From a virus (Duplodnaviria > Heunggongvirae > Uroviricota > Caudoviricetes): a stretch of 15,800 nucleotides of DNA. The notes under the pieces were generated by a model, which had not been told where the DNA came from, searched no databases, and was given only the letters and a program-made list of their open reading frames with translations. Position numbers and translations under genes: made by a program. Positions 837 through 14,552 of this stretch are shown piece by piece (positions within the stretch are counted from its first letter, which is position 1; each line of letters begins with the position of its first letter). The DNA lies in the IMG/VR virus record IMGVR_UViG_2693429605_000015, positions 1 through 15,800 of that record; one strand, given 5' to 3'.

Positions 837-1043
837 TCAACTCACAAAACGCCACGCCATTTTTGCTACGACAACAGGCATAACACCGATAATCACCCAG
901 ACAAATGCAGCGCCAAACAACGTATACCATGGGTCTTTACCGTCATTCACAAGACGAATGTAGCTATTCAGAACAATAAAAAACGTCAGAAGAATCCATC
1001 CAACGCCAACGCATTTGAATGCGACGAGCATAAACTCAGCCAC
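837..1043 (-). CDS. Small hydrophobic (2 predicted TM) protein, 68 aa, likely GTG start
   Basis: GTG at 1043 preceded by GGGGGAGAG; translation has two hydrophobic stretches (GWILLTFFIVL, AAFVWVIIGVMPVVV). Sits just downstream of the tR2-like terminator. Confidence 0.4.
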   Translation of the reverse strand: MAEFMLVAFKCVGVGWILLTFFIVLNSYIRLVNDGKDPWYTLFGAAFVWVIIGVMPVVVAKMAWRFVS

Positions 1044-1056
1044 GATTTACTCTCCC

Positions 1057-1090
1057 CCAAATAAAAAGGCCTGCGATTACCAGCAGGCCT
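1057..1090 (-). terminator. Rho-independent terminator after the helicase gene (tR2-like position)
   Basis: Perfect 8-bp inverted repeat AGGCCTGC (1067-1074) / GCAGGCCT (1083-1090) with 8-nt loop; on the minus strand it is followed by TTTTATTT (plus 1059-1066). Confidence 0.55.
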
Positions 1091-1118
1091 GTTATTAGCT
1101 CAGTGATGTAGATGGTCA

Positions 1119-2555
1119 TCAGAATCCTCCTTTCTTCTTGGACTGCGGTTCCTCGCGTTCACGGCGGCGCATTTCAGCAGACTGTTGGTCTGTGTCATAA
1201 ATAGCGCCATTTGCCTGAATGCAATACACCGTGCCGGTATTGCCATGACGATTGAGGCGAAGGATTAGTTCGGTTTCACCAGGAGGAACGCTGTCATCAA
1301 AAGCGCCTTCACGATGGATCCCCACCCAATAATCGCAATCCTGTTCAATCTGCCCTGTATCTCGTGAGTCACTTGGTAATGGGCGTTTATTGGTTCGGCT
1401 TTCCAGTGCGCGGTTAAGCTGTGTCAGAAGCACAACAACGCAATCAAGCTCTTTGGCAAGGTTCTTCAGTCCTTTGGTGATCATGCCGTAAGCAAGGTCG
1501 TTGCGATCGGCCTTCTCAGCGGTCATTAGTGTCAGGTAATCGACCAGAATCATGCCAACACATCCTTTTTCTCGCTTGATTCGACGGCTTTCGCTGACGA
1601 TTTGAGCCAGAGATAATCCCGGCGTGTCGTCGATGTAAAGCAGGTCGATTTCACTCAAGCGATTGGCTGTTTCGATCGCCCTGTTGAAGTCACCATCGTA
1701 ATCACCCTGATAGCCGTCATCAGCGTCATTTGTCGCCAGAAGGTAAAAAATATTGGGGTTAACACCTGACTTTTGCCCTACCAGTTTTTCCAGTATCTGG
1801 TCACCTGGCATTTCAAGGCTGAACATCAGAGCGGGCTTTTTCTCATGCACTGCGCAGTTGATTGCCATCTGGCTGTATAGCGTCGTTTTCCCCATCTTAG
1901 GGCGAGCGCCAATGACAAACAAAGAGCCTTTCACCAGACCTTTCGGTGACAGCATCCTGTCCAGCGATGGGATCCCTGTGCTCATTCCTCGTTGTTCGCC
2001 TGACGGGTCAAATCGCTTCTCAAGGTCGCTAACCCAGTCTTCCATGACCTCACCAAATGAGCGAAGGCCGCGACGCGATCCGGTTTTTGCATGGTCTGTC
2101 AGTTGCGTGAAAATCGCCTGAATAGCTTCGTACTTCTGCGTTGCAGTCATTCCGTTGCGGGAATAGAGCAATTCCGTCGCTTCAGTCATGCGGTTGATGG
2201 CGTAGCGTTCCATTGCGGTTTCACGAACCTGCATTGCATAGGCAACGATGTTTGCTGCGCTTGGCGTGTTCTTTGCGATCTCAGCGATATAAGCAAAACC
2301 GCCAACAGACTCCGTTAACGATTTACGCTCCAGTTCATCGAAAAGCGTCAGGCCATCTACTGGCTTTTGCTCCCGGTGCATTATGGTTATTTCTTCGAAA
2401 AGGATTTTGTGTGGCCGGCTGTAAAATGAATCAGGCTTCAGCATCGCCAGAACTTTCTGGACGCGCTCACTGCTGTCATCATCCAGAAGCAATCCACCAA
2501 TCACCGCCTGCTCTGCCTCGATGCTATGGGGCGGCGCATAAAAATTATCGGTCAT
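1119..2555 (-). CDS. Replicative DNA helicase, DnaB family (lambda P / P22 gene 12 position)
   Basis: N-terminal PHSIEAEQAVIGGLLLDD and Walker A GARPKMGKT, colinear with E. coli DnaB as recalled. Start placed at ATG 2555 (GAGGGTG SD upstream) rather than the GTG at 2570 used by the ORF track. Confidence 0.9.
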   Translation of the reverse strand: MTDNFYAPPHSIEAEQAVIGGLLLDDDSSERVQKVLAMLKPDSFYSRPHKILFEEITIMHREQKPVDGLTLFDELERKSLTESVGGFAYIAEIAKNTPSAANIVAYAMQVRETAMERYAINRMTEATELLYSRNGMTATQKYEAIQAIFTQLTDHAKTGSRRGLRSFGEVMEDWVSDLEKRFDPSGEQRGMSTGIPSLDRMLSPKGLVKGSLFVIGARPKMGKTTLYSQMAINCAVHEKKPALMFSLEMPGDQILEKLVGQKSGVNPNIFYLLATNDADDGYQGDYDGDFNRAIETANRLSEIDLLYIDDTPGLSLAQIVSESRRIKREKGCVGMILVDYLTLMTAEKADRNDLAYGMITKGLKNLAKELDCVVVLLTQLNRALESRTNKRPLPSDSRDTGQIEQDCDYWVGIHREGAFDDSVPPGETELILRLNRHGNTGTVYCIQANGAIYDTDQQSAEMRRREREEPQSKKKGGF

Positions 2556-3444
2556 CGTGTTCACCCTCACGAACTTTCAGGTAGGTATTATCGTTAAGCA
2601 GGAAATCAAATCCCTTTTTGTGCCAGACGGTTCCGCGTTGATGGTTTGGGCGCTCTTCGAACATCCATCGGCAATTTTCGCCTACGTAGCTCAAATAATT
2701 TCTCCAGTCCTGCATCGTGAACCCATGCCCGTCAAGCTGGCGGGTTATCACTCCGGCTTTGCGCCAGAACGTTCGGATCTGGTTTTTACGCTTGTCATTC
2801 AGTGCGCGGATTCTTGGCGCTTCAGGAAGGATTTCGTGGTAAGCATCGACAACATCCTGACAGCTAACGGAAGGTTTTTTCTTGTCAGACTTTTTGTCTG
2901 CTGCGGTACTCTCTAATACGTCAGTATTAGAGATAATATTATTATATTCTTTATCTGTGGTAATTTGCTGGTAATCTGCTGGTACAGTATTGCTTGCAGG
3001 CATTGGTATTGCTGGCTTTGAGGTGGTAATTTGCTGGTAATCTGCTGGTACAAAATTTGACTGATAATCGTCATATTTCTCTACCGAGAAAACTGAGAAT
3101 TTACCGTGTGAAACCCAGTCAATCATGCCGAGTTTTTTGAACTTTCTAAGCAGGTACTGAACGCGATCTGGTTTGAGTCCTGTTTCAAACGCCAGAGAGT
3201 TTCTACCGCCAAGTAGCTTCCCTCTGCCTACCAGAATTTCTCCTGCGTCAGTCATTACATACTCAGGCGTATGCTTTGCTTTGAGGATTAAGTGAACCCA
3301 CAGATGCGCAGCTTCTGCGTCCTTGTAAAACGGCACATCCATAATTTTACGGTGCAGCAAGGCATACCCCTTACCGCTGCTTTGATGCGGTTGTTGTAGC
3401 CTTCTGGCCTCTCTGGCTTCGGCTAGATTAGATATGTTACTCAT
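2545..3444 (-). CDS. Replication initiator, lambda O / P22 gene 18-like, with ori iterons inside the coding sequence
   Basis: 299-aa ORF between cII and the DnaB-like helicase; contains internal 30-bp direct repeats encoding the duplicated peptide [10 protein letters not shown]. Assignment is by synteny and the iteron-in-gene architecture, not by remembered identity. Confidence 0.7.
2957..3052. repeat. Candidate origin of replication: two identical 30-bp direct repeats with GCTGGTA sub-repeats, flanked by AT-rich DNA
   Basis: GTGGTAATTTGCTGGTAATCTGCTGGTACA occurs at 2957-2986 and 3023-3052; the motif TGCTGGTA recurs four times plus one TGCTGGC; AT-rich stretches at 2925-2955 and 3053-3110. 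Confidence 0.65.
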
Positions 3445-3583
3445 GACCTTTCTCCTTCTGCATCAGCTTCACTTTTTCCAACTCAGCCCGGAATCGACCA
3501 GGCTGCTTGAAGCTGGACAGGAAGCGATCACGTAGTATGTGTTTGTGAATTTTGTCCTGGTAAGGACTGAGTTGTTTTGTCAT
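3437..3583 (-). CDS. Small hypothetical protein (48 aa) between cII and the O-like gene
   Basis: Hand-translated: [51 protein letters not shown] at 3583 with AGGAG 5 nt upstream; stop overlaps the O-like start by 8 nt. Below the ORF-track length cutoff. Confidence 0.4.
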
Positions 3584-3617
3584 AATTACTCCTGTGGATT
3601 GATCCAGTCTTTCTACA

Positions 3618-3896
3618 TCAGGCCTCGAAGAATTTGCCGTTCTTCGGGGCTTTTTCTTTTGTCAGCATTCTGGCTACTTTCTTAGCCAGTTCCGCCAACT
3701 CCTCGTCTTCAACACCCCATTCAAGAACAGCCAGAAGCATTCCCATTTTTGGGATGAAGCTGTCTTTCCATCGCGAAATTTGCGATTCATTAATTCCTAA
3801 CGCGTCAGCAACCTTTCGCTGGCCACGTACAGCAATTCGATTCAGGATGTTGCTTGTAATTGCATTCGCTTTCTTGCGAGTACTTGTAAGTTGCAT
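3618..3896 (-). CDS. cII: CII transcriptional activator
   Basis: [26 protein letters not shown] matches lambda [29 protein letters not shown] as recalled; the translation-initiation region AAGGAAATACTTACATATG matches the lambda cII start region as recalled. Confidence 0.9.
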
Positions 3897-3905
3897 ATGT
3901 AAGTA
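3850..3905 (+). promoter_or_regulatory. Candidate PRE (CII-activated promoter reading toward cI) with TTGC-N6-TTGC-type sites
   Basis: Perfect TTGCttgtaaTTGC at 3850-3863; a second, imperfect TTGCgagtacTTGT at 3874-3887 sits at the lambda-equivalent distance from a TAAGTA -10 candidate (3900-3905). Both lie in the antisense of the cII 5' end, as in lambda. Confidence 0.4.
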
Positions 3906-3911
3906 TTTCCT

Positions 3912-3947
3912 TAACTAATAAGAAGTTATGCGCATCAACTTATGCGC
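3912..3947 (-). terminator. tR1-like hairpin between nutR and cII
   Basis: GCGCAT (3930-3935) / ATGCGC (3942-3947), 6-bp stem with 6-nt loop; followed on the minus strand by the A/U-rich AUAACUUCUUAUUAG. Weak intrinsic terminator geometry at the position of lambda tR1. Confidence 0.4.
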
Positions 3948-3953
3948 GTTGTA

Positions 3954-3998
3954 TTCCCGCATTTCGGCGGGAATGAGGACCATGACTGTTAAAGAGCG
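3954..3998 (-). promoter_or_regulatory. nutR: boxA (CGCTCTTTAACA) plus boxB hairpin
   Basis: On the minus strand: CGCTCTTTAACA (plus 3987-3998), 13-nt spacer, then hairpin TTCCCGC-CGAAAT-GCGGGAA (plus 3954-3973). The boxB is identical to the one at 5651-5668 downstream of PL. Confidence 0.6.
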
Positions 3999-4004
3999 GT
4001 GTTA

Positions 4005-4199
4005 CTATTTGTTTTTCTTGTTGCTTGGGAAAGGACGAACTTCCTCTCCAATCACACTGCCATCAGGCTTTACCGTAACCATGATGTTACGGCCTGCCAG
4101 AATGGCCTTGCTGATAGCGCACTGGATTACACCAAAGTCACTGGCTGCTTTAGCCTGTCCATGGATTTTGGCGTAATCGGCAAGTGTCATTCGAATCAT
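4005..4199 (-). CDS. cro: Cro repressor
   Basis: [39 protein letters not shown]...[11 protein letters not shown] is colinear with lambda Cro as recalled. Start placed at ATG 4199 (GGAG 7 nt upstream) rather than the track's GTG at 4205. Confidence 0.85.
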
Positions 4200-4228
4200 A
4201 TGCACTCTCCGTTATTAACCATGAACAA

Positions 4229-4299
4229 AGAATACTACAGGTATTCAAAGCAATCAATACTCAGGGTATTTTTAGTTTAAGTACCTTAGCTATTAGAAT
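4229..4299. promoter_or_regulatory. OR operator cluster with divergent PR (toward cro) and PRM (toward cI)
   Basis: Three 15-bp sites of form AATAC-N5-GTATT: 4231-4245 and 4256-4270 (perfect half-sites) and 4280-4294 (AgTAC...cTATT), centres 24-25 bp apart. PR on minus: -35 TTGATT (plus 4252-4257), 17-bp spacer, -10 TATTCT (plus 4229-4234). PRM on plus: -10 TAGAAT 4294-4299, 7 nt before the cI ATG, implying a near-leaderless cI mRNA as in lambda. Confidence 0.65.
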
Positions 4300-4305
4300 T
4301 AAGCT

Positions 4306-5022
4306 ATGGAAAATAAAAAATCACTGACGACAGAACAGCTGGAAGACGCTAAGCGGCTTAAGGCTTTGTATGAGTCAAAAAAGAAAGAATTGGGAATAAC
4401 CCAATACTCAATCGCTGATGAACTGGGTATCACCCAAGGAGCGGTAGGGCATTATCTTAATGGCAGAAATGCGCTAAACGTTGAGGTTGCATCTGGTTTT
4501 GCACGATTGTTGCAAGTCTCAATTGCTGATTTTAGCCAGTCAATTGCTGCCAAGGTTGCAGAACAGGCAGAAAGCCTTAAGAGCGATGCCAACGTAAGGT
4601 ATGCAGGGGAATACAGAGCAGGAAAGAGGTATCCGGTGTTAAGCAGTATCCAGGCTGGCTCGTGGTGTGAAGCATGCGAACCATACACCATTAAAGACAT
4701 AGATGTTTGGCTTGAGTCTGACGCGCATATTCAAGGTAATGCGTTCTGGCTTAAAGTGGAAGGTGATTCAATGACGGCACCGGTTGGGTTAAGCATTCCA
4801 GAGGGAACATTCGTTCTTTTCGATACCGGAAGGGAGGCGATCAACGGCAGCTTGGTCATAGCAAAACTTTCTGACTCTAACGAAGCAACATTCAAGAAGC
4901 TGATAATCGACGGCGGAAATAAATACCTCAAGGGACTTAATCCTGCATGGCCTCTCGTGCCAATCAATGGAAACTGCAAGATTATAGGCGTTGCAATTGA
5001 GACAAAACTAAGGCTGGTTTGA
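4306..5022 (+). CDS. cI: CI repressor (HTH N-terminal domain, LexA/S24-type autocleavage C-terminal domain)
   Basis: LTTEQLEDAKRLKALYESKKKELGITQ colinear with lambda CI as recalled; candidate Ala-Gly cleavage site in IQAGSW; Ser and Lys motifs VEGDSMTAP and TFKKLI match lambda VEGNSMTAP / TFKKLI. Confidence 0.9.
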   Translation: MENKKSLTTEQLEDAKRLKALYESKKKELGITQYSIADELGITQGAVGHYLNGRNALNVEVASGFARLLQVSIADFSQSIAAKVAEQAESLKSDANVRYAGEYRAGKRYPVLSSIQAGSWCEACEPYTIKDIDVWLESDAHIQGNAFWLKVEGDSMTAPVGLSIPEGTFVLFDTGREAINGSLVIAKLSDSNEATFKKLIIDGGNKYLKGLNPAWPLVPINGNCKIIGVAIETKLRLV

Positions 5023-5039
5023 TCACGCAAGGGGCGATT

Positions 5040-5408
5040 ATGGTTGGAACCGCTATAGCAAGCTTTTTTGGGATGTTGGCAATCTCGACAATTTACGGCT
5101 TAGCGCATGCTTTTATTGCGAAATCTCTATCAGAAAAAATAAGCCAGGCTTGGGCGCATAGATCAGCTCGTTTCATGATTCTAGTGATCATAGCAATACA
5201 AGGGATATCTGCATTTATCCTCTATGGTTCAAGCTTATACCTGTTGTATCAAGGCGCGACATTTACGCCTTACACCAGTGATTACGGAACTCTATACGAT
5301 GGTAGTGAAGACATCTCTATGGCTTGGATTGTCTTTGGTTTATCTATGGCCGTGTCTGTTGTAGCAGATATCATTAAGGTAATTCTCGTCTTAACCTTCG
5401 CTGACTAA
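5040..5408 (+). CDS. Small integral membrane protein (about 3 TM) co-transcribed downstream of cI, in the rexA/rexB position
   Basis: ATG at 5040 with AAGGGG SD 5 nt upstream, 18 nt after the cI stop; three hydrophobic segments (VGTAIASFFGMLAISTIYGLAHAFIA; FMILVIIAIQGISAFILYG; MAWIVFGLSMAVSVVADIIKVILVL). No recognisable similarity to lambda RexB from memory. Confidence 0.6.
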   Translation: MVGTAIASFFGMLAISTIYGLAHAFIAKSLSEKISQAWAHRSARFMILVIIAIQGISAFILYGSSLYLLYQGATFTPYTSDYGTLYDGSEDISMAWIVFGLSMAVSVVADIIKVILVLTFAD

Positions 5409-5494
5409 CCTATAATCCCGGCAGCAATAGCTATCGGGATCCACTTCACATATCCCGCATAAAAAGCACTGAACAAGCAGACACCGAAAAAATA

Positions 5495-5581
5495 AATATC
5501 CTTTGTATTCATTTGCTTATCATTATTTCATCAAAAATAAATACCTTGGGTATTTACACAATAAAATACCTACAGTATTCT
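5495..5581 (+). promoter_or_regulatory. OL operators and PL promoter
   Basis: AATACCTTGGGTATT (5540-5554) and AATACCTACAGTATT (5565-5579) share the OR half-sites; a third, weaker AATATCCTTTGTATT at 5495-5509. PL: -35 TTTACA 5553-5558, 17-bp spacer, -10 TATTCT 5576-5581. Confidence 0.6.
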
Positions 5582-5627
5582 TTAGCCATCAGCAGGACGC
5601 TGGAAGCCAAACGGAACAGATTGGCAG

Positions 5628-5668
5628 GCTCTTTAACATTGATGGGATTGTCCCGCCGAAATGCGGGA
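5628..5668 (+). promoter_or_regulatory. nutL: boxA (GCTCTTTAACA) plus boxB hairpin
   Basis: GCTCTTTAACA at 5628-5638 (matches the rrn/lambdoid boxA consensus as recalled), 12-nt spacer, hairpin TCCCGC-CGAAAT-GCGGGA at 5651-5668, identical to the nutR boxB. Confidence 0.6.
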
Positions 5669-6112
5669 ACTGAGTTTAACCAAACAGGAGGTGCCGTAAT
5701 GGTGCACTAACGCGGTTAGACCGCAGCCGAAAGGAAATGCAGCAGTAATGATGCTGCCCTGAGTCGCCATTGAGCGAGCCTGCTTAGCATCGGGTTAGGG
5801 TCAATATATTAAAAGTAGCTCCGGTAAAGCAGCGCGAATGCCAGACGCGCACCGGTTATCAGCGGCGATGAAGCGGCAGAGACTCAAGGGCATGAGCGCG
5901 CTCACTGCGAGAGTGTGAGTCAAAGAGTAGTTGGCTTTGGGATTGGATGAATGAGCAGGCTGATGCTCGACCAATGTATAAACAGCGCTCATGGCAAGCA
6001 GTAACCAATCTGCGCCTCAAGACAGCGTCACTGGTAGTGCGGGCGCTCTAACCAGTAAGCCGGAATTCAGCACCGGCCATCCAATCACCAAAGTCAATCA
6101 TCGGAGGTCAAC

Positions 6113-6385
6113 ATGACAGTAGTCATTACATATCTGGCTGACGATAACGCCAGAAATCGCCGCAGAGCACGCAGACAGGCTCAACGTGAGCAGGCAATGC
6201 AAGAACAGCGACTGGCGCGAAAAATTGCGCTAAAGCTCTCTGGTTGCGTCAGAGCAGACAAAGCAGCATCACTCGGAAGCCTTCGCTGCAAGAAGGCAGA
6301 TGAATGCAGTGGAAGTATTTGCCTGCCAAACGTAGCCATTTACGCGGCAGGCTACCGGAAATCAAAACAACTGACGGCGAGGTAA
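6113..6385 (+). CDS. N: N-type transcription antiterminator (P22 gene 24-like)
   Basis: N-terminal arginine-rich motif NARNRRRARRQAQREQ; C-terminal VAIYAAGYRKSKQLTAR resembles the P22 gp24 C-terminus as recalled; GGAGG SD; sits downstream of PL/nutL. Confidence 0.75.
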   Translation: MTVVITYLADDNARNRRRARRQAQREQAMQEQRLARKIALKLSGCVRADKAASLGSLRCKKADECSGSICLPNVAIYAAGYRKSKQLTAR

Positions 6386-6387
6386 TT

Positions 6388-6780
6388 ATGGGTCAGGAAG
6401 AAAAATATGAGCTTAAAAAGCTCATTGAAGAAGACGCCATAGAAGAAATTGCAGCATTAACAACAGCTATAAATAATATTAGGTATGCGCTAAATACGCT
6501 TATCTCCTCATGCGACAAAAATAGCAGGGAATTTTTGATACTTGGCGCAGCTCTAGGAATAGTTGATGCGGCAACGCTTCACCTAATTACTCATGACGAT
6601 ATTCTTATTGAGCCGTATGAAACATTACTGCTTGTCAGGCAAAAAATGGCTGATGCCGCAGCAAATGGAGACCTTCAACTTTACATCGACTTAAGGAAAG
6701 TATTAAGGCGAATGGTCAGAACTGAAGGAGATATCCCACTGAGCGATGCTAAACAAGGCATACAAGCAAAGCTGGAATGA
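6388..6780 (+). CDS. Hypothetical early-left protein (130 aa)
   Basis: ATG at 6388 three nt after the N stop, with GAGG SD; acidic/helical composition; no family recognised. Confidence 0.55.
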   Translation: MGQEEKYELKKLIEEDAIEEIAALTTAINNIRYALNTLISSCDKNSREFLILGAALGIVDAATLHLITHDDILIEPYETLLLVRQKMADAAANGDLQLYIDLRKVLRRMVRTEGDIPLSDAKQGIQAKLE

Positions 6781-6840
6781 CCATTATCCTGATGAAGTAT
6801 CGAAAGCACAGTCAGCAATTAGCAAAGCTCTTGGGGAAGA

Positions 6841-7002
6841 ATGATGAATAAGAAATACATTGTTGAAGTTATAGAGCGAGAAACGAAAGAAGTAATCAAA
6901 CATTTCGAATTTGATAATTATAGAAAACCTGACCGCGTAGAAGAAGGATTGTTGCGACAAAGTAATCTCGAAAAATTTGATGTTGTCATGCGATGCGAAT
7001 AA
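6841..7002 (+). CDS. Small hypothetical protein (53 aa)
   Basis: Hand-translated MMNKKYIVEVIERETKEVIKHFEFDNYRKPDRVEEGLLRQSNLEKFDVVMRCE; GGGGAAG just upstream; followed by the hairpin at 7009-7032. Confidence 0.35.
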   Translation: MMNKKYIVEVIERETKEVIKHFEFDNYRKPDRVEEGLLRQSNLEKFDVVMRCE

Positions 7003-7095
7003 GCGCCTATAGCAGATTTACGAGTCTGCTATGTGAGCAATGTCGCTCGTAACTAAACAGGAGCCGACTTGTTCTGATTATTGGAAATCTTCTTT

Positions 7096-7120
7096 GCCCT
7101 CCAGTGTGAGGGCCTTTTTA
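7096..7120 (+). terminator. Rho-independent terminator (tL1-like, between the N module and cIII)
   Basis: GCCCTC (7096-7101) / GAGGGC (7108-7113), 6-bp stem with 6-nt loop, followed by CTTTTTA. Confidence 0.5.
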
Positions 7121-7185
7121 TATGCATACCAATAACGCTTCACTCGAGGCGTTTTCGTTATGCAATCAAACAGAAGGAGCATCCT

Positions 7186-7356
7186 ATGCAACAGTTCGCT
7201 ATTGCAGGGGCGGCATCGGTTCGCCCTTTCAACCCGATTTTATCGGTACAGCATTCACGAAAAAATATTTTAACCGGAGCAGACTTTAAACAACCAAGAA
7301 TGAAAAGCTTGCTCGAAAAGCTTTGGGATATTTTGAAACAACAAGGCCGTCCATGA
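7186..7356 (+). CDS. cIII: CIII-like protein (FtsH inhibitor that stabilises CII)
   Basis: 56 aa; MQQFAIAGAAS and central KSLLEKLWDILKQ resemble lambda CIII MQYAIAGW...ESLLERITRKLRDGWKRLIDIL as recalled; strong AAGGAG SD 6 nt upstream of ATG 7186. Confidence 0.65.
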   Translation: MQQFAIAGAASVRPFNPILSVQHSRKNILTGADFKQPRMKSLLEKLWDILKQQGRP

Positions 7357-7382
7357 GTTTTACCAATAAGGGGAGCAAGTAA

Positions 7383-8474
7383 ATGGCTATTCAGACTAAA
7401 ACATTGCAGGTACGCGTCAAAGACCGCCACGCCGCCTTGTTGCGTCAGATGGCCTTTGAAGTGAACCAAGTTTTTAACTTTATCAATGAAATGACTGCGA
7501 CTGAATACAGCACTGTCAGCGAATACGGACCAAAACAAAGAGTTTGGTTAACTGAATTTGACGTAGATAAACGCATTGCTGGTATTCAAAAGGAGCGCGG
7601 ATACCACATACAAGCAGCTACTTGTCAGGAAATCTCAAAACATCACGCTAAAGCGCGTAAACAGTTTAAACGCAGTAAGCTGCGCTGGCGTAAAAGTGGC
7701 GGTGCTGGGCGTAGTCTTGGTTGGGTTCCGTTCAAAGGTGCTCAAGTGAAATGGGTAAACGGCTGCATCAAGTTTGCCGGGCACTATTTCAAAGTGTGGG
7801 ATAGCTATGGATTAAATGGCTTTAAATTCCGTGCTGGTAACTTTGCAGAAGATGCGCGCGGTCGCTGGTATTTCAATGTTGCAGTTGAATACGAATGCGA
7901 ACCAACTAAAGGCACTGCCGACGTGGGTATCGATCTTGGTCTGAAAGACATTGCCACCACTTCGGATGGTGAAAAACTTCCTGCTAAACGTTGGTATCGT
8001 GAATTAGAAGGCAAATTAAAAATTGCTCAACGTGCCCATAATAAAAAACGTGTTAGAGCTATCCACGCAAAAATCAAAAATCGCCGTAAAGATGCACACC
8101 ATAAGTTTTCTACGGCGCTGGTTAATAAATACGCCGCTATTTTTGTAGGCGACGTAAGCAGTAAAAAGTTATCAAAAACAAATTTGGCAAAAAGTATCTA
8201 CGACGCCGGCTGGTGTCAGCTAAAAAATCAGATTCAGTATAAAGCGATTGCGCGGAGTGTGGTTTTTGAGGTCGTAGATGAAGCGTACACCACCCAGACT
8301 TGCTCGTGCTGCGGAGCTATTAGCTGCAGTAGTCCGAAGGGTAGGGTAGGCCTTGGAATAAGAGAATGGATCTGCGTGGAATGTGGTGAACTCCACGACC
8401 GCGACGTAAACGCGGCAAAGAACATTCTCGCGGCGGGACATCGCCGTCTCGAAGGAGGAATCCACGCCCTTTAG
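7383..8474 (+). CDS. tnpB: TnpB-family protein (IS200/IS605 OrfB-like; RuvC-like nuclease fold with zinc finger), 363 aa
   Basis: RuvC-I VGIDLGLKDIATTSDG; zinc finger TQTCSCCG...WICVECG; RuvC-III HDRDVNAAKNI; DAGW...YKA helper motif. GGGGAG SD upstream. No tnpA-like (HUH) ORF nearby. Confidence 0.85.
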   Translation: MAIQTKTLQVRVKDRHAALLRQMAFEVNQVFNFINEMTATEYSTVSEYGPKQRVWLTEFDVDKRIAGIQKERGYHIQAATCQEISKHHAKARKQFKRSKLRWRKSGGAGRSLGWVPFKGAQVKWVNGCIKFAGHYFKVWDSYGLNGFKFRAGNFAEDARGRWYFNVAVEYECEPTKGTADVGIDLGLKDIATTSDGEKLPAKRWYRELEGKLKIAQRAHNKKRVRAIHAKIKNRRKDAHHKFSTALVNKYAAIFVGDVSSKKLSKTNLAKSIYDAGWCQLKNQIQYKAIARSVVFEVVDEAYTTQTCSCCGAISCSSPKGRVGLGIREWICVECGELHDRDVNAAKNILAAGHRRLEGGIHAL

Positions 8475-8740
8475 GGCGTGGAGGATGTCAAAGATAACTG
8501 GTCAGACAAAGAATTCATTCGTCAGATGAAAGAATTAATCGGTAACGAAGGAGATATGCATGTCACTTGCAACCACAGTGAAGGAGAGCAAGTTACAGAG
8601 ACGCATGTACACGCAGAAAGCTCTCTGGTATCGCCATAATGGCGACCGCGAAGGAATGCGGGTATGCCTTAATTTGTCCCGAGTCGAAGTATTAAATCAG
8701 CGTTATTTCCTTGGGCCATGTCCATTCTGAGAACAATCAT
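8459..8740 (+). ncRNA. Candidate TnpB-associated guide RNA (omega-RNA-like) region: 3' end of tnpB plus 266-nt non-coding gap
   Basis: Perfect 9-bp hairpin TCCACGCCC-TTTA-GGGCGTGGA (8461-8482) straddling the tnpB stop; second hairpin TCGCCA-TAA-TGGCGA (about 8627-8641); unusually long non-coding gap in a tightly packed operon. Inference only. Confidence 0.25.
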
Positions 8741-9346
8741 ATGAGCAAAGAATTTTACGCAAGACTGGCAGCTATTCAGGAGAATCTGAACGCGCCAAAG
8801 AATCAGTACAACTCATTCGGCAAATATAAATACAGAAGCTGCGAAGACATTCTTGAAGGCGTTAAGCCGTTACTGAATGGCCTGTTTTTATCAATCAGCG
8901 ATGAAGTTGTGCTGATTGGTGATCGGTATTACGTGAAAGCCACGGCAACTATTACCGATGGCGAAAACAGCCATACGGCAACCGCTCTTGCACGAGAGGA
9001 AGAAAGCAAGAAAGGAATGGATTCTGCACAAGTTACGGGAGCTACAAGCTCTTATGCACGCAAGTATTGCCTCAATGGTTTGTTCGGCATTGATGATGCG
9101 AAAGATGCAGATACCGACGAGCATAAACATCAGCAGAACGCAGCAGCAAAGCAATCAAAACCATCACCTACACCTGAACAGGTTCTAAAAGCATTCACTG
9201 ACGCAGCATTGCAGAAAAACACCGTAGAAGAGCTTAAACAGGCGTTCGCCAAAGCGTGGAAGATGCTCGAAGGCACACCGGAGCAGCACAAAGCACAGGA
9301 CGTTTACAACATCAGACGAGACGAATTAGAAGGAGCGGCTGCTTAA
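8741..9346 (+). CDS. erf: Erf-family single-strand annealing recombinase
   Basis: MSKEFYARLAAIQENLNAPKNQYNSFGKYKYRSCEDILEGVKPLL... matches P22 Erf as recalled. ATG at 8741 preferred over the track's upstream TTG at 8711. Confidence 0.8.
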   Translation: MSKEFYARLAAIQENLNAPKNQYNSFGKYKYRSCEDILEGVKPLLNGLFLSISDEVVLIGDRYYVKATATITDGENSHTATALAREEESKKGMDSAQVTGATSSYARKYCLNGLFGIDDAKDADTDEHKHQQNAAAKQSKPSPTPEQVLKAFTDAALQKNTVEELKQAFAKAWKMLEGTPEQHKAQDVYNIRRDELEGAAA

Positions 9347-9729
9347 TGGCACATTCGATTACTGTAAGACTAAACAAGCCCGCAAGAGAGTTTCAGGCCG
9401 GGGAAAATATCGGATTCAACATCCGTGCTGGCGTTCAGTATTACGATCGCCAGACAAAAAAGAAAGAATGGACAAACTACAGCGCCGTTGTATTTGCCAA
9501 GCCGGGAGCGCAAGCGGATTACTACCGTAGTGTTCTTGTTGAAGGTGGCATTGTGGAAATTACCGGAGAAAACATCAGGGTTGATGTTTATCAGGGGCAA
9601 AATGGTCAATCAATCACTCTTGAATTACTGAATGCAAAGATTGGATTTGCAACTTCAGGAAACAGCCAACAGCAGCAAAGTAGCAATCATCAAAATCATC
9701 CTGAATACGACGATTCAATTCCCTTCTAG
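9346..9729 (+). CDS. Phage single-stranded DNA-binding protein (SSB-like) with acidic C-terminal tail
   Basis: ATG at 9346 overlaps the erf stop (TAATG); AGGAG SD; Q-rich linker and C-terminal YDDSIPF resembling the E. coli SSB tail DFDDDIPF. Confidence 0.65.
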   Translation: MAHSITVRLNKPAREFQAGENIGFNIRAGVQYYDRQTKKKEWTNYSAVVFAKPGAQADYYRSVLVEGGIVEITGENIRVDVYQGQNGQSITLELLNAKIGFATSGNSQQQQSSNHQNHPEYDDSIPF

Positions 9730-9752
9730 ATTAGCAAAATAAGGATTCCATT

Positions 9753-10046
9753 ATGCCAGCGCCTCTGTATGGTGCGGATGACCCGCGCCGCTGTTCCGGC
9801 AATTCCGTATCGGAGGTGCTGGATAAATTCAGAAAAAACTACGATCGAATAATGTCTCTACCGCAGGAAACGAAAGAGGAAAAGGAGTTTCGCCACTGCA
9901 TATGGCTTGCAGAGAAAGAAGAACGAGAGCGAATTTACCAGACATCAATCCGACCATTCCGCAAAGCCACATATACCCACTTCCCTGAAATCGACCCGCG
10001 CCTGCGTAATTACCGCTCACGCTATGGCGCTATCAGTAATGACTGA
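9753..10046 (+). CDS. Abc2-like protein (putative anti-RecBCD), 97 aa
   Basis: Position immediately after erf/ssb as in P22-like recombination modules; AAGGA SD. The family name rests on synteny and an uncertain memory of P22 Abc2, not on verified identity. Confidence 0.5.
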   Translation: MPAPLYGADDPRRCSGNSVSEVLDKFRKNYDRIMSLPQETKEEKEFRHCIWLAEKEERERIYQTSIRPFRKATYTHFPEIDPRLRNYRSRYGAISND

Positions 10047-10056
10047 GGAATTAACA

Positions 10057-10230
10057 ATGAAAACAATGAAGCTAAACATCGACCTCGGAAAATACGTTAT
10101 TACCGGAACAAAACACGATCTGATTCTTAGCGAAAGAGGAATTATCAAAGAAGGCGAGAATGCAGGGAAAGAAACACTAAGCCGTATCGGTTATTACAGC
10201 AAGTTTGAGCATCTGGTTAAAGAGTTATGA
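10057..10230 (+). CDS. Small hypothetical protein (57 aa)
   Basis: ATG at 10057 with GAGGAA SD; MKTMKLNIDLGKYVITGTKHDLILSERGIIKEG... Confidence 0.45.
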   Translation: MKTMKLNIDLGKYVITGTKHDLILSERGIIKEGENAGKETLSRIGYYSKFEHLVKEL

Positions 10231-10343
10231 AACCGTGAAATCCTGTTATCTCAGGCGCAGACGCTACAGGATATTCAGCAGCATATCGAGACTTTAGGTG
10301 TGTCACTTAGCATGGCTATTGACCAGTTCGTGGAGAGTAAATC

Positions 10344-10508
10344 ATGAGAGGTCTTGCATACAATCCCGGCATTCTTCCGGCAGAAATGATTATTCGCCAA
10401 CGCGTAAAGCCAATGCCATCGAGAGAGGAATTGCTTAAGAGAAATTCTTTTCCATCAGTGAATCAAAACAAATATCTGAATGCGATGTGGCGGAGTGGGA
10501 AGAAATGA
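10344..10508 (+). CDS. Small hypothetical protein (54 aa)
   Basis: Hand-translated [54 protein letters not shown]; GGAGAG SD; stop overlaps the next start (ATGA). Confidence 0.4.
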
Positions 10509-10948
10509 AACAAATGTCACTAATTGAGATGGATGGATTTCTGAAAGGTAAATGCATCCCAAGTGATTTAAAGGTTAACGAAACAAACGCTGAATATCTG
10601 GTGCGTAAGTTCGGTGAACTTGAATCAAAACTAGAAACAGCGTTGCGTGAGTGTCGTTCTGCTGGAATCACGATTGATAACCTTGAGGCCAAGTGCGCGG
10701 CGCTGGCTGTGGAGAATGCGGGGATGAAAGAATATCTAGCTCCAGTAGGGTTAGTGGTAGAGGGAACCCCAGCCACCGACGCCTTCCTGGCTGAAGTGCG
10801 GGCGCAGGGTGTGGAGATGGCTCGTAACGCGATGATTGATTTTGTTGATGGTGAAGTTGGGCCAAACAAGAACGTTCCGGGGCTGATTAGAGGCGCAGAG
10901 ATATGCGTAAGTATTGCTGCCCAGCTTCGCAAAGGAGGCAACCAATGA
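10505..10948 (+). CDS. Hypothetical protein (147 aa)
   Basis: ATG at 10505 translationally coupled to the upstream ORF; coiled-coil-like composition; no family recognised. Confidence 0.55.
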
Positions 10949-11226
10949 GCGTAATCCAGTACGTAGTTAGAGATGCAGGCACGTTTCCTGAGGATGCGTT
11001 TTTTCTCGATCCTCGACACATCGATGAGCTCATTTCTGAGTGGGAATTGGAATGCTTGTCTCAGGATGCCTCCCTTGATTATTTTGACAATCATGACGGC
11101 TTGGAATCTGACTGGCCGTTGGATATCGAGCTATTCATTGACGGTGAGAGCGTAGGTGTATTCACGGTTGAAATGGAACATGTACCTCAATTCAGCGCAA
11201 GAAAAATACCGGAGGCCGCCCAATGA
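10945..11226 (+). CDS. Hypothetical acidic protein (93 aa)
   Basis: ATGA overlap with the upstream gene; AGGAGG SD. Confidence 0.6.
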   Translation: MSVIQYVVRDAGTFPEDAFFLDPRHIDELISEWELECLSQDASLDYFDNHDGLESDWPLDIELFIDGESVGVFTVEMEHVPQFSARKIPEAAQ

Positions 11227-11726
11227 GCAACATCGACAAACGCGCATTACGTCATAGCGCAGAAAGCATAATCGGCATTCTGGAAAACATTGCCGGGTTC
11301 GAACCATCTGATATCGACGGCGACTCTGTAGAGCTCCGCTTTGAAACTGAGGACGGTTTCGATACTGGTTGTGACGTTAGCATTGTTGACCAGTGCCAGA
11401 AAACCGCTGATGTAGTTCGGGCGCTGCTGGATGAGCTGGAAAGAAACCAGCAATACATCAAACGCCGCGACCAGGAGAACGAGGATATTGCGCTAACGGT
11501 AGGGAAGCTGCGTGTTGAGCTTGAAGCAGAAAAACAGCGGGCAAAAGTTCTATTTATGGAAAATGCTCGGCTTAAGTCAGGCATAGCCGGTCTGATACAC
11601 CTCGGTATTCGATATGCAGATGTTGAGGTCATGAAAATTGCTGGAGATGCCCAGCTTTCTACCCCATGCACTGACAGCATCATAAACAGCATTGCAACAG
11701 GCATTCGCATCAACGGAGGTGAGTAG
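11223..11726 (+). CDS. Hypothetical protein (167 aa)
   Basis: ATGA overlap with the upstream gene; GGAGG SD; coiled-coil-like central segment. Confidence 0.6.
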   Translation: MSNIDKRALRHSAESIIGILENIAGFEPSDIDGDSVELRFETEDGFDTGCDVSIVDQCQKTADVVRALLDELERNQQYIKRRDQENEDIALTVGKLRVELEAEKQRAKVLFMENARLKSGIAGLIHLGIRYADVEVMKIAGDAQLSTPCTDSIINSIATGIRINGGE

Positions 11727-11898
11727 TGCGTGTGGCATGTATCGGCTTGTTACCGTACCCGACTCGTTTTTGGGCTTCTGCGCTAATTGCAAAGCCACAT
11801 GTCCTGATGGCTGACAACATCATCCCGGCACCAAAGCGCCGCCATACTGGTATTGCAGCGGCACGACGAGCAGCAAAGAAACGCAGGAGAGCAAAGCG

Positions 11899-12087
11899 AT
11901 GAAAAACCGTAAGGCAAAGATTCTGTTAGCTCGCAGAAACGGTGTTGGGGTCTGGCGATGGTTGAGGATTAGTAACAGACGAGTGAGGTTGACGGGGTGT
12001 TGCGGGGTTATGGGGCACAGTTGTTGCAAAAAGCCCAGTGCGGCGCAAAACCGCTGGAAAAACCACTTACGCACTAAAGGAGCCTGA
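11899..12087 (+). CDS. Possible small basic protein (62 aa), doubtful
   Basis: Good SD (AGGAGAG) and stop 1 nt before the next gene start, but the composition is unusual (Arg/Trp/Cys-rich, low complexity). Confidence 0.3.
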   Translation: MKNRKAKILLARRNGVGVWRWLRISNRRVRLTGCCGVMGHSCCKKPSAAQNRWKNHLRTKGA

Positions 12088-12088
12088 T

Positions 12089-12298
12089 ATGGCTATTGCC
12101 GCAAGTTACACCATGCATCTCTACTGTGATTGTCGCCAGTGTACAAATGGTAAATATCAAACGCCAGACTTCGGTGAGTATATCGGTACGTCATGGGCTG
12201 GCTGTGCAAAAGAGGCGCGCAAGGATGGCTGGCGAATAAGCAAAGACAAAACGCGTGCTTTTGCGCCCGGGCATAAAGTTTTGAGGATTAACAAATGA
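12089..12298 (+). CDS. Small Cys-rich protein (69 aa)
   Basis: ATG at 12089 with AAGGAG SD; MAIAASYTMHLYCDCRQCTNGKYQ...GCAKEA has four to five Cys spaced like a small zinc ribbon. Confidence 0.5.
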   Translation: MAIAASYTMHLYCDCRQCTNGKYQTPDFGEYIGTSWAGCAKEARKDGWRISKDKTRAFAPGHKVLRINK

Positions 12299-12939
12299 CC
12301 ACTATTACCAGAGAACAAGCTCTGAAAATTATTGAGGCAGCCGATGAGGTTATTAGTGCGCTTGCCGGAACTAACGAGGATGTTCACCCTGGTAGCGATA
12401 ACATGCTACGTCTGTGGGATGACCTGAATGACCGTTACGCGCCCCCGGAAGTAGTGCGTGAGCTGGCACGAATTGTGCTGGCATCGCTGGAAGCAGAACC
12501 TGTAAGCCAAACTTACAACTTGCCACAAACGCACTTTGAACAGGTTGCTGACCTTTACGAAATGCAATTTGATGACGGACGCACTTGTGCCTTTCATACT
12601 GATGCGCAAAAGGCTGCGCAATGGCTTCGGGCATGCGACGGAAACAGGGTTCAGGAATACGTGAAACTGGAGCGACTGCAGAACGCGCTATCGGGCAACT
12701 CTCCGGTAATTCCGGATGGCTGGATAAGCTGTAGTGAGCGAATGCCGGAAAAGAATAAGAACGTGCTTATTTCGGTGAATTTCGATAGCTCTCTGGTTGA
12801 GCCGCTAATATGCTCCGCACGCTATACCGGAAGTACATTCCGGCGTGGAGATGTAACGGTTAAGCCAGGTAATGGTATTGAGCAGGCAACCCACTGGATG
12901 CCTCTACCAGAACCGCCTCAGGAGGTTAACCGTGGCTAA
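12295..12939 (+). CDS. Phage protein with C-terminal DUF551-like domain (214 aa)
   Basis: C-terminal WISCSERMPE...VLISV...THWMPLPEPP recalls the DUF551 signature common in enterobacterial prophages; GAGGA SD; ATGA overlap with the upstream gene. Confidence 0.6.
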   Translation: MTTITREQALKIIEAADEVISALAGTNEDVHPGSDNMLRLWDDLNDRYAPPEVVRELARIVLASLEAEPVSQTYNLPQTHFEQVADLYEMQFDDGRTCAFHTDAQKAAQWLRACDGNRVQEYVKLERLQNALSGNSPVIPDGWISCSERMPEKNKNVLISVNFDSSLVEPLICSARYTGSTFRRGDVTVKPGNGIEQATHWMPLPEPPQEVNRG

Positions 12940-13213
12940 CCTGCAACTTGCCGTCAAAGGTGAATACTTCGATGCCATGATTCGCGGAGAGAAAACGGAA
13001 GAGTATCGCCTGTGTAATGACTATTGGAATAAGCGAATTATGTTCAGGGAGTATGACCGCCTGATTATCACAAAGGGATATCCGAAGCGCGACGACTCCA
13101 GTCGCAGAATTGATGTTCCGTATGGAGGATATGAAGTGAAAACAATCACACACCCCCACTTCGGTGATAAACCGGTAAAGGTATACGCGATAAAGGTGAA
13201 TATCAATTGCTAA
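12932..13213 (+). CDS. Small ASCH/PUA-like domain protein (93 aa), GTG start
   Basis: GTG at 12932 with GGAGG 6 nt upstream; LQLAVKGEYFDAMIRGEKTEEYR resembles ASCH-domain N-termini. Tentative. Confidence 0.5.
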   Translation: MANLQLAVKGEYFDAMIRGEKTEEYRLCNDYWNKRIMFREYDRLIITKGYPKRDDSSRRIDVPYGGYEVKTITHPHFGDKPVKVYAIKVNINC

Positions 13214-13325
13214 ATTAGTAGCATAGCATAAAGATGCTTGCATTAATGAAGTGTGTATAATAACGCCTCATCAATAGTAAACTACTGAAATAGCAAAAAA
13301 ATGCATATTAAAGAGGATTCGAAAA

Positions 13326-13517
13326 TTGAAAATGTTCATGCAAATAGACAGACGCATAGATATTAATGGCAATTCATACTTAGTTAGATGCGAAGAGAGG
13401 CCTAACGGTGAGTGGCGTGTATATGATATTGACCGTAAGATCAATATCAGCACCATGAACAAAGACACTGCCTTTGATGAATGGAAAGCTGAAGCTAAAA
13501 AACAACATAATTCGTAG
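13326..13517 (+). CDS. Small hypothetical protein (about 61-63 aa)
   Basis: Follows an AT-rich promoter-like gap (13214-13325); start TTG 13326 or ATG 13332; AGAGGA upstream. Confidence 0.4.
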   Translation: MKMFMQIDRRIDINGNSYLVRCEERPNGEWRVYDIDRKINISTMNKDTAFDEWKAEAKKQHNS

Positions 13518-13559
13518 AATTACAAAAACCCTAACCAATTGATGGATTTCTTTTATCTG

Positions 13560-13585
13560 AACTCGCTACGGCGAGTTTTGTTTTA
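13560..13585 (+). terminator. Rho-independent terminator
   Basis: AACTCGC (13560-13566) / GCGAGTT (13571-13577), 7-bp stem with 4-nt loop, followed by TTGTTTTA. Confidence 0.5.
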
Positions 13586-13597
13586 TGGAGATGATAA

Positions 13598-13765
13598 ATG
13601 CACTTCCGAGTCACAGGTGAATGGAATGGAGAACCATTCAACAGAGTTATCGAAGCGGAGAACATCAACGACTGCTATGACCACTGGATGATATGGGCGC
13701 AGATAGCGCATGCAGACGTAACCAATATTCGAATTGAAGAACTGAAAGAACACCAAGCCGCCTGA
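13598..13765 (+). CDS. Small hypothetical protein (55 aa)
   Basis: Hand-translated MHFRVTGEWNGEPFNRVIEAENINDCYDHWMIWAQIAHADVTNIRIEELKEHQAA; GGAG SD; followed by a terminator. Confidence 0.45.
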   Translation: MHFRVTGEWNGEPFNRVIEAENINDCYDHWMIWAQIAHADVTNIRIEELKEHQAA

Positions 13766-13780
13766 TGGCGGTTTTTTATT
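13756..13780 (+). terminator. Rho-independent terminator
   Basis: CCGCC (13758-13762) / GGCGG (13767-13771) stem with TGAT loop, followed by TTTTTTATT. Confidence 0.6.
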
Positions 13781-13787
13781 GCCTGAT

Positions 13788-13803
13788 TTGCAGGTTCGAT
13801 TCC
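13788..13803 (+). other. tRNA T-arm-like fragment (TTGCAGGTTCGATTCC) just upstream of torI
   Basis: 16 nt identical to the T-stem/loop portion of tRNA-Arg (argW) as recalled; the downstream sequence does not complete a tRNA (no matching 3' T-stem or acceptor). Confidence 0.4.
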
Positions 13804-13822
13804 CTATTCGGAGATAGCACTC

Positions 13823-14023
13823 ATGCAACACGAACTACAACCTGATTCACTGGTTGATTTGAAATTCATCATGGCTGATACTGGCTTCGGTAAGACCTTC
13901 ATCTATGACCGGATTAAGTCCGGCGACCTGCCAAAAGCCAAAGTTATCCACGGGCGAGCAAGATGGTTATATCGTGACCATTGTGAATTCAAAAATAAGC
14001 TATTAAGCCGCGCCAATGGGTAA
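13823..14023 (+). CDS. torI: TorI-type excisionase / recombination directionality factor (KplE1/CPS-53 family)
   Basis: 66-aa product MQHELQPDSLVDLKFIMADTGFGKTFIYDRIKSGDLPKAKVIHGRARWLYRDHCEFKNKLLS recalled as E. coli TorI; GGAG SD; sits at the prophage end next to the att core. Confidence 0.8.
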   Translation: MQHELQPDSLVDLKFIMADTGFGKTFIYDRIKSGDLPKAKVIHGRARWLYRDHCEFKNKLLSRANG

Positions 14024-14096
14024 AATAGCGGGTAAAATATTTCTCACATCTAAAAAATACCATTCCAATCAATCCCCTGCTGCCTCAAGTAGATGT

Positions 14097-14111
14097 CTGC
14101 AGGGGACACCA
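14097..14111 (+). other. Prophage attachment-site core (attR side): duplicated 3' end of tRNA-Arg (argW)
   Basis: CTGCAGGGGACACCA equals the 3' T-stem strand, acceptor strand, discriminator and CCA of argW as recalled, with no complete tRNA upstream; phage-type genes stop here and a host gene follows. Confidence 0.5.
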
Positions 14112-14552
14112 GATACCCTTCAAACGAAATCTACCTTCACCCCGTAAAAGATGGGTTTGGCAGCACACTTGCCTTATATCTACTCATTTTTACTGCAACA
14201 GGTTGAAATCTCAGCACTGTCAGAAAGCGCTGATGACTAAACAGCCCTGAGCCGGGCGATGTAACCATCACACAGAATCCTGATAGCGAAATATGGCGTG
14301 ACTCGATACTTCACTCCGCAATGCATTCCTTGATGAATTCGCAGGACCGTGATACACGGGACAGGTCACTGAATGACGACAATGTCCTGGAAATCAGCGA
14401 ACCGCGCATCTGAAGTACATTTGAGCGACTGTACCAGAACATGAATGAGGCGTTTGGATTAGGCGATTATTAGCAGGGCTAAGCATTTTACTATTATTAT
14501 TTTCCGGTTGAGGGATATAGAGCTATCGACAACAACCGGAAAAAGTTTACGT

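Follow-up and report, generated by a model that had tools for sequence, protein, structure and literature searches.

A tnpB-only element in a lambdoid prophage and the predicted guide RNA at its right end

We analysed a 15,800-nt stretch of tailed-phage DNA (Caudoviricetes; hereafter the window), positions 1 to 15,800 of the IMG/VR record IMGVR_UViG_2693429605_000015, which carries a tnpB gene followed by an interval, 8475-8740, that an initial annotation made from the letters alone had taken for a non-coding gap holding a candidate omega-like guide RNA. The DNA belongs to a lambdoid prophage, and the window corresponds to the early-left (PL) operon region. On its + strand, a cI-like repressor gene, N, a cIII-like open reading frame (ORF), tnpB, erf, abc2 and ead-type genes follow one another; the - strand holds replication and nin genes, and the window terminates in host genes. 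The closest complete genome, that of Escherichia coli A2 (source platypus), has the same tnpB at the same position. The features discussed below are listed in Table 1.

Boundaries and empty target sites of the element

The limits of the tnpB element can be read from phages that do not carry it. When the window was compared by blastn with HK542 and vB_EcoP-720R6, both without tnpB, positions 7035-7363 corresponded to 1501-1829 in these phages and 8492-9400 to 1830-2738. Since the two blocks abut exactly, 7364-8491 is a precise insertion with no target duplication. The left junction joins GAGTTTTAC to CAATAAGG and the right junction joins GGATGTCAA to AGATAACTGG, and in the element-free allele GAGTTTTAC is directly followed by AGATAACTG (in the HK542 version, ATGAGTTTTAC by AGATAACTG). 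The element is thus inserted 3' of a 4-5 nt motif without duplication, TTTAC/element/AGATAAC against the empty TTTAC/AGATAAC, as is typical of IS200/IS605 elements. Also in keeping with that family is a subterminal palindrome at the right end, the hairpin 8461-8482, whose foot lies 9 nt from the terminal TCAA. This cleavage motif differs from the target motif TTAC at two of four positions, and GTCAA is unchanged across all 25 aligned relatives. Because the element stops at 8491, only 17 nt (8475-8491) of the interval 8475-8740 belong to it. These features are reminiscent of IS608 from Helicobacter pylori, which targets TTAC and ends in TCAA, 10 nt from its subterminal palindrome (PMC3201880). 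As in IS608, insertion is 3' of TTAC without duplication and TCAA follows the palindrome, at 9 nt here. In contrast, IS608 has tnpA and a left-end palindrome 19 nt from TTAC, neither of which was found here, where TTAC is followed by 19 nt and then the tnpB ATG.

Table 1. Features of the tnpB element and its surroundings (window coordinates)
Feature	Positions	Strand	Evidence or remark
tnpB-only element, IS200/IS605-related, 1128 bp	7364-8491	+	Starts CAATAAGG, ends GGATGTCAA; from empty alleles
TTAC, target and predicted transposon-adjacent motif (TAM)	7360-7363	+	Final 4 nt of ORF-A stump
tnpB, 363 aa, intact ORF	7383-8474	+	Pfam OrfB_IS605 and Cas12f1-like_TNB
RuvC-II region, F254-S259	8142-8159	+	Gly256 replaces Glu
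Candidate alternative-Glu region, V298-Y302	8274-8288	+	Glu300
Predicted core omega-RNA scaffold	8355-8491	+ (sense to tnpB)	Covariance model, covariation, conservation end at 8491
Long-range helix GAGAAUG (8362-8368) / CAUUCUC (8423-8429)	8362-8429	+	Variable region inside; 93-97% of cells paired
Hairpin GCGGCGG (8430-8436) / UCGCCGU (8441-8447)	8430-8447	+	Within tnpB coding sequence (...AAGHRR...); 100% paired in 25 sequences
3-bp helix 8448-8450 / 8455-8457	8448-8457	+	97% paired; two pairs changed on both sides in 9-10 sequences
Terminal stem-loop (8461-8469 / 8474-8482): last scaffold stem and right-end subterminal palindrome	8461-8482	+	tnpB stop TAG in loop
TCAA, right-end cleavage motif, final 4 nt of element	8488-8491	+	Junction from empty alleles
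Predicted guide segment AGATAACTGGTCAGAC	8492-8507	+	Native phage DNA flanking the right end; length taken from other TnpB systems
ORF-A 5' stump, 11 nt, ATGAGTTTTAC	7353-7363	+	Empty alleles
ORF-A (phrog_2123) downstream remainder	8492-8639	+	In-frame GTG at 8478, in the element end, would give a 53-aa ORF
ORF-B (phrog_1723; HK97 gp42.1), 56 aa, intact, directly upstream of erf	8560-8730	+	PHROG profile
Second hairpin, chance palindrome inside ORF-B	8631-8645	+	8631-8637 / 8639-8645
erf, phage single-strand annealing recombinase gene	8741-9346	+	Pfam ERF, E 2e-44; context

The phage DNA that follows the right end provides the predicted guide. The first 16 nt of this flank, preceded by TTAC, correspond to the element-free site, as read from the empty alleles of HK542 and 720R6, with one difference in HK542, at position 10 of the guide. 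The exact 20-mer, TTAC plus AGATAACTGGTCAGAC, occurs in at least 120 viral contigs (among them L133-L252). Of 5426 complete E. coli genomes, 1091 have a match to a 50-nt probe for the empty site (828 records with >=99% identity). As expected of a variable guide, the flanks after ...GTCAA differ in every independent insertion. The length of the guide and its presence in the RNA are deduced from other TnpB systems. Position 8508, the 17th base past the element, is A in four of four element-bearing alleles (GACAAAG in the window, E. coli A2 and viral contigs L108 and L256), and G (GACGAAG) in all but one of 118 empty-site alleles. This difference, just outside the 16-nt guide, may be hitch-hiking or chance.

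Predicted structured RNA at the 3' end of tnpB

Sequence conservation concentrates at the right end of the element and stops with it. A sensitive DNA search with the whole element found distant tnpB genes in phages of Ralstonia, Bacillus and Acinetobacter. The Ralstonia and Bacillus matches are limited to the final 200-235 nt (~8257-8491), with 75-80% identity, while the Acinetobacter phage match begins at ~8013. Most of the distant matches reach 8491, the last base of the element, and two Ralstonia matches end 31 nt earlier. In these relatives, as in over 100 additional viral contigs with the terminal motif, conservation runs through ...GGAGGATGTCAA and the sequence directly after it is unrelated. 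Synonymous sites were assessed as the frequency with which the same codon is used where amino acids agree between family members. This frequency is 0.37 over the first 279 codons, 0.44-0.52 from ~8223, and 0.72-0.81 in the last 13 codons. Conservation of this kind points to a structured RNA region on the tnpB sense strand that overlaps the final ~130-235 nt of the element, and at both the DNA level and synonymous sites it suggests that the 5' start of the scaffold may lie further upstream than the core listed in Table 1, at ~8223-8257.

Covariation strengthens the case for an RNA. We aligned 25 collinear relatives, using slid pairing partners and 500 shuffles as controls, and obtained the four-helix consensus whose pairings are given in Table 1. 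Paired cells amount to 97.2%, against 43-48% with slid partners. Changes on both sides of a pair account for 109 cells, seen at 15 pairs, against 7-20 in the slid controls, and the observed covariation values were reached by none of the 500 shuffles. In the long-range helix, two pairs have both-side changes, in five and six sequences. In the hairpin 8430-8447, six of the seven pairs are changed on both sides in 7-14 sequences despite its coding location. The segment 8282-8507 also folds more stably than 200 of 200 shuffles (z -2.98). Other helices of the minimum-free-energy fold of the window (8292-8347, 8375-8397 and 8399-8415) are not claimed, as they are only 49-77% paired across relatives.

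The terminal stem-loop, in which the initial annotation had seen a perfect 9-bp hairpin at the tnpB stop, is real. Its arms, 8461-8470 and 8473-8482 (TCCACGCCCT and AGGGCGTGGA), are 10 nt long and 100% complementary, effectively forming 9 bp closed by a 4-nt loop in which the TAG stop (8472-8474) is found. A perfect stem of at least 9 bp with a 3-8 nt loop arises in 0.75% of 2000 shuffles of 8400-8760. The hairpin is kept in relatives with compensatory changes and is always followed by GGAGGATGTCAA, and this hairpin-GGAGGATGTCAA motif is found in at least 120 viral contigs.

A covariance model (R1), built from 23 relatives with the window and its close copies left out, gave a single match in the window, at 8355-8491 on the + strand, over the full model length (147.2 bits, E 3e-34), and none within 8492-8740. 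The scaffold would thus lie almost entirely upstream of the tnpB stop, with 17 nt beyond it. No Rfam family matched anywhere in the window at gathering thresholds. When Rfam was searched by E-value instead, HgcC (RF00062) aligned to 8381-8503 (26.9 bits, E 3.4e-4) and a weak sot0042 match was also returned. The HgcC alignment is good only over the terminal stem, where the stem and the GGAGGAnGUCA tail are near-identical. Since its score is below the gathering score of 50, the RNA is not a member of HgcC by the Rfam criterion. Gomes-Filho et al. described an "RE-like tetraloop" in HgcC and in sense-overlapping transcripts (sotRNAs) at the 3' end of IS1341-type tnpB (PMC4615843). The window resembles these archaeal RNAs in its terminal stem-loop and tail and in the location at the tnpB 3' end, where they sometimes extend across the stop; it differs from them in its upstream scaffold and in its host, a bacterial phage.

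Like known omega RNAs, the predicted RNA has the same sense as tnpB, overlaps the 3' end of that gene, finishes at the right end of the element, and has a conserved secondary structure with compensatory changes. From known TnpB biology, we infer that it is an omega (right-end) guide RNA. The part of the initial annotation that foresaw an omega-like RNA overlapping the 3' end of tnpB therefore stands, being borne out by covariation, the R1 match, the sub-threshold HgcC match and synonymous-site conservation, and its placement and extent have to be corrected. The scaffold does not run through the 266-nt gap: it ends at 8491, and what follows from 8492 would hold at most ~16-20 nt of guide, with ~230 nt coding.

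In the form GGAATCC-hairpin-GGAGGATGTCAA, the terminal motif is common to tnpB elements of viral contigs (L013-L132) with quite different scaffolds, short forms having the stop codon in the last loop and long forms having 100-150 nt of scaffold 3' of the stop. Neither the bacterial nor the phage forms of this motif have an Rfam family that matches at threshold. In Ralstonia phage Eline (~1359-1645 of L011), two partial right-end or omega-like segments adjoin each other in inverted orientation, and no tnpB ORF accompanies them. They resemble leftovers of the end of the element or a palindrome derived from it.

Phage genes downstream of the element

The initial annotation had described 8475-8740 as non-coding, with no convincing ORF, which is not supported. 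From 8492 to 8740 the window is collinear with tnpB-less phages at 95-98% identity. This is native phage DNA, and it is protein-coding, consisting of the remainder of a split gene (ORF-A) and an intact one (ORF-B), which belong to phrog_2123 and phrog_1723, respectively. As RNA, the same segment shows no unusual stability (z -0.96).

The insertion interrupts ORF-A 11 nt from its start, in the fourth codon, and the stump in the window reads MSFTNKGSK*. In the empty allele, ORF-A matches phrog_2123 over its full length (1-52 of 52, E 6.6e-42). In 118 empty-site contigs, ATGAGTTTTAC precedes the junction and the ATG is kept, in two different upstream contexts; there, ORF-A starts MSFTDNWSDEEFIRQM... 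and is 52-56 aa long, or 35 aa in a second, acidic form. The initial annotation had named a translated and conserved ORF at 8526-8639 as what would speak against an RNA locus. This frame is conserved, being part of phrog_2123, which bears on the conservation half of that statement.

ORF-B matches positions 3-58 of 58 in phrog_1723 (E 9.4e-36) and has GGAG 8 nt upstream of its ATG. It is present in 69 phage records and remains intact in an Enterobacter phage (62% identity) and in Erwinia phage vB_EhrS_59 (48% amino-acid identity). In the latter it is annotated as a coding sequence in a different context, the gene downstream being labelled an ATP-binding protein. Of the 23 differences from HK542 in the part occupied by ORF-B only, 13 fall at its third codon positions, and codon changes number 9 synonymous and 10 non-synonymous in ORF-B against 1 and 9 in ORF-A. 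The third-position bias and these counts make ORF-B clearly a gene. ORF-A belongs to a recognised family, with a C-terminal tail that seems to be under less constraint.

A second hairpin, which the initial annotation had placed at about 8627-8641, does exist, at 8631-8645 and inside ORF-B. With 7-nt arms separated by 1 nt, it effectively forms 6 bp. It is at chance level, as stems of at least 6 bp occur in ~33% of shuffles of 8400-8760, and the palindrome is broken in the HK542 allele.

Several minor features of these small genes can be noted. ORF-A and ORF-B overlap out of frame at 8560-8639, within 8478-8730. Their annotation in public records is inconsistent, either ORF, both or none being marked, and the labels "recombinase" and "cIII" are used with no evident basis. 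The N-terminal module of ORF-A, MSFTDNWSDEEFIRQM, shares (W/F)SDEEFI with Arf of phage P22 (L255, 3869-4012), the cofactor of Erf, whose gene directly precedes erf in that phage. The gene interrupted by the element may thus be arf-like, with too short a similarity for certainty. ORF-A was not accepted as a homologue of P22 arf, since only a 7-residue motif is shared (WSDEEFI / FSDEEFI) and the two fall in different PHROG families; it is kept as a lead. At the tnpB edges, GGGGAG is a likely ribosome-binding site before the ATG, the TAA of the ORF-A stump overlaps that ATG (TAAATG), and the GTG at 8478 is 3 nt past the tnpB stop, in the frame of ORF-A. Coupled translation is possible at both edges, judging by this arrangement.

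TnpB, proposed mechanism and alternatives

The explanation that we consider highly probable is that the element was inserted 3' of TTAC in ORF-A, that a covarying omega-type RNA occupies the 3' end of tnpB, that the guide comes from the phage flank, and that the rest of the gap is coding. The omega RNA would be cut out of the tnpB or operon transcript, with ~16 nt of adjoining phage sequence (8492-8507) included as guide. In complex with TnpB, this RNA would recognise TTAC plus AGATAACTGGTCAGAC, the sequence that this phage locus has when the element is absent. TnpB would then cut empty sites, whether left by excision or present in related phages that are co-resident or co-infecting, and homologous recombination at the cut site would restore or spread the element. 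This follows the homing/retention mechanism described for TnpB, in which the site formed by TAM and guide is cut and the element restored after excision; in other elements, the mismatch between right end and TAM protects the occupied site (PMC10055086).

The closest parallels are the omega RNAs of ISDra2 and Geobacillus ISGst. There too a sense RNA lies over the 3' end of tnpB and finishes at the right end, the guide comes from flanking DNA, the TAM is the transposase target motif at the left end, and TAM plus guide make up the element-free site. In contrast to these elements, the scaffold here lies, going by sequence, nearly all inside the coding sequence, with the stop in the last loop, and RuvC-II is rearranged. 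To our knowledge, the scaffold sequence is unrelated to that of ISDra2. This is no new kind of system; sequence-level tests place the predicted RNA with TnpB omega/right-end RNAs.

A number of observations weigh against this explanation. No curated Rfam family reaches threshold in the window, and the transcript, its processing and the guide length are extrapolated from the TnpB systems that have been studied. Conservation of the terminal stem could partly reflect DNA recognition by a transposase. A left-end subterminal palindrome was not found, DNA folding of 7356-7470 giving a z of -0.51, and there are only 19 nt between TTAC and the tnpB ATG. (A weak imperfect pairing at ~7427-7452, spotted by eye, is unconvincing as such a palindrome.) No tnpA was found, either in the 17 ORFs of the window by Pfam scan or in the annotated 17-kb locus of strain A2. 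The exact element is known from a single insertion site, shared by three or more mosaic phage backgrounds, so that its present mobility is no more than putative. Finally, the position of the RuvC-II Glu (E278 in ISDra2 TnpB) is Gly256 in the TnpB of the window, and nuclease activity would therefore depend on an alternative residue, Glu300.

The last of these points raises the possibility that the RNA is made and TnpB is impaired or domesticated, either as an RNA-guided repressor that binds TTAC plus guide or as a decaying relic. It draws on Gly256, on the left-end hairpin and tnpA that were not found, and on the single copy at a single site. The protein itself argues otherwise. When it is aligned to ISDra2 TnpB, whose structure chains it matches at E 9e-22, D184 and D341 correspond to the catalytic aspartates, and both CxxC pairs are present. 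The ORF is intact and TnpB is full length, its C-terminus not shortened, whereas exapted TnpB-derived repressors are C-terminally shortened forms. Moreover, the rearrangement is subfamily-wide: Gly at position 256, then Asp or Asn, is found in all 20 aligned subfamily members, and Glu300 (...DEAY...) is kept in every one of them, ISDra2 having no Glu there. This matches the RIIr-5-type rearrangement, which is predicted to be active. In their largest rearranged clade, Altae-Tran et al. (2023) proposed that an alternative Glu compensates for the replacement of Glu by Gly, and predicted activity, untested as of 2023 (PMC10691335). The RIIr-5 TnpB clade (PMC10691335) and the TnpB of the window share the Gly in place of the catalytic Glu, a conserved Glu downstream and the RuvC-III motif DRDxN, a candidate assignment from the motif pattern. 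Glu300 may likewise stand in for the missing RuvC-II Glu here, as proposed for that clade. We therefore regard an impaired TnpB as unlikely.

Slightly less likely still is that the 3' structure acts as DNA only, as a right-end palindrome bound by TnpA in trans, and has no function as RNA. The distance from the stem to the TCAA end is 9 nt, comparable to the 10 nt of IS608, and the RNA motif coincides with the right-end palindrome (PMC4615843). What this does not account for are the three other helices, up to ~130 nt from the end, which covary within the coding sequence, and no tnpA was found in the 17 scanned ORFs of the window or in the annotated locus of strain A2. The DNA and RNA roles are, besides, not mutually exclusive. 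In studied elements, the same end sequence serves both, and we know of no TnpA-binding role for the region upstream, ~130 nt from an end of the IS608 type.

The view that the whole of 8475-8740 is a non-coding guide-RNA locus, with a scaffold of ~260 nt 3' of tnpB that uses both hairpins, has very little probability left. In its favour are the overlap of TnpB guide RNAs in general with the 3' end of their tnpB, the long scaffolds found past the stop codon in many relatives that share the terminal motif, and the lack of a RefSeq annotation for the interval in strain A2; but collinearity with tnpB-less phages (8492-9400), the end of element conservation at 8491, the want of an R1 match in 8492-8740, folding no better than that of shuffles, the two encoded PHROG families and a second hairpin that is at chance level and unconserved all speak for phage genes. 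The gap is better annotated as the element end, a predicted guide of ~16 nt, a split small gene and an intact one than as a 266-nt RNA locus. That the hairpin 8461-8482 is an intrinsic terminator of tnpB is the least credible reading of all: the stem is perfect, G+C-rich and at the stop codon, but it is followed by GGATGTCAAAGATAAC and no T-run, a terminator scan reports nothing there, and it belongs to the element and not to the operon, in which erf and the genes downstream need read-through.

If the omega-type reading is right, as we favour, the tnpA-less element with its minimal left end might act as an RNA-guided nuclease for homing or competition between lambdoid phages, without a transposase, a suggestion that we offer only tentatively. 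Since guide and TTAC exactly match the start of a small gene, and the empty-site probe is found in about one-fifth of E. coli genomes, such a nuclease would cut related phages. Because tnpB is in the PL operon, 3' of the terminator-like hairpins 7096-7153, its expression would be expected during lytic growth or induction, and from PL it would be expressed alongside Erf and anti-RecBCD functions. Co-infecting or resident related phages would be cut, and would then either receive a copy of the element or be excluded. A 2026 review considers that TnpB could in principle copy its element into homologous DNA such as that of co-infecting phages (PMC13565253). There is a parallel in SegF of phage T4 ("intronless homing"), where a nuclease gene is likewise located between conserved phage genes and the predicted target is the site in phages without it; in contrast to SegF, recognition would here use an RNA guide and a TAM instead of protein, as read from the sequence. 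This is a TnpB element of a temperate phage for which boundaries, TAM (TTAC), TCAA, guide and empty target can all be read, and whose target is common in E. coli prophages. Being native to E. coli, it would be well suited to tests of the TnpB variant with a relocated Glu and of transposase-independent homing from phage to phage.

The hairpins upstream of the cIII-like ORF, 7096-7113 and 7134-7153, are terminator-like with T-runs, and in HK97 a putative terminator is annotated in the region corresponding to window 7096-7153.

As for its distribution, the element was found in one of 5426 E. coli genomes, A2, as a 99.6% copy. Two viral contigs, L108 and L256, carry an identical copy, both at the same site. 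A search of one-genome-per-species contigs for its exact 35-nt right end revealed no further insertion. In different phage backgrounds, the element accompanies the cIII-erf module. A mosaic comparison of the element-bearing contigs was rejected as evidence of homing, because the boundary of the block at 7035 is a module junction of the kind usual in lambdoid phages. A relative with 85% identity is found elsewhere, in Salmonella phage LPSTLL (L005, 2940-3014 and 4110-4140, compared with the empty L257, VSt472), with an atypical junction, for which reason a second TAM derived from this copy was dropped. The LPSTLL copy is not cleanly inserted in the TTAC manner. Compared with the empty phage, it has 52 extra nt on its left (CTATTGACG...ATATGGAC), and a 9-bp direct repeat, AGAATTAAT, lies on either side of it, which is not expected from IS200/IS605 elements. 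Alignment to the left end of the window element, the only basis in each case, gives TGAC in Dimitile, TGAC in HFM1 and GGAC in LPSTLL as candidate TAMs.

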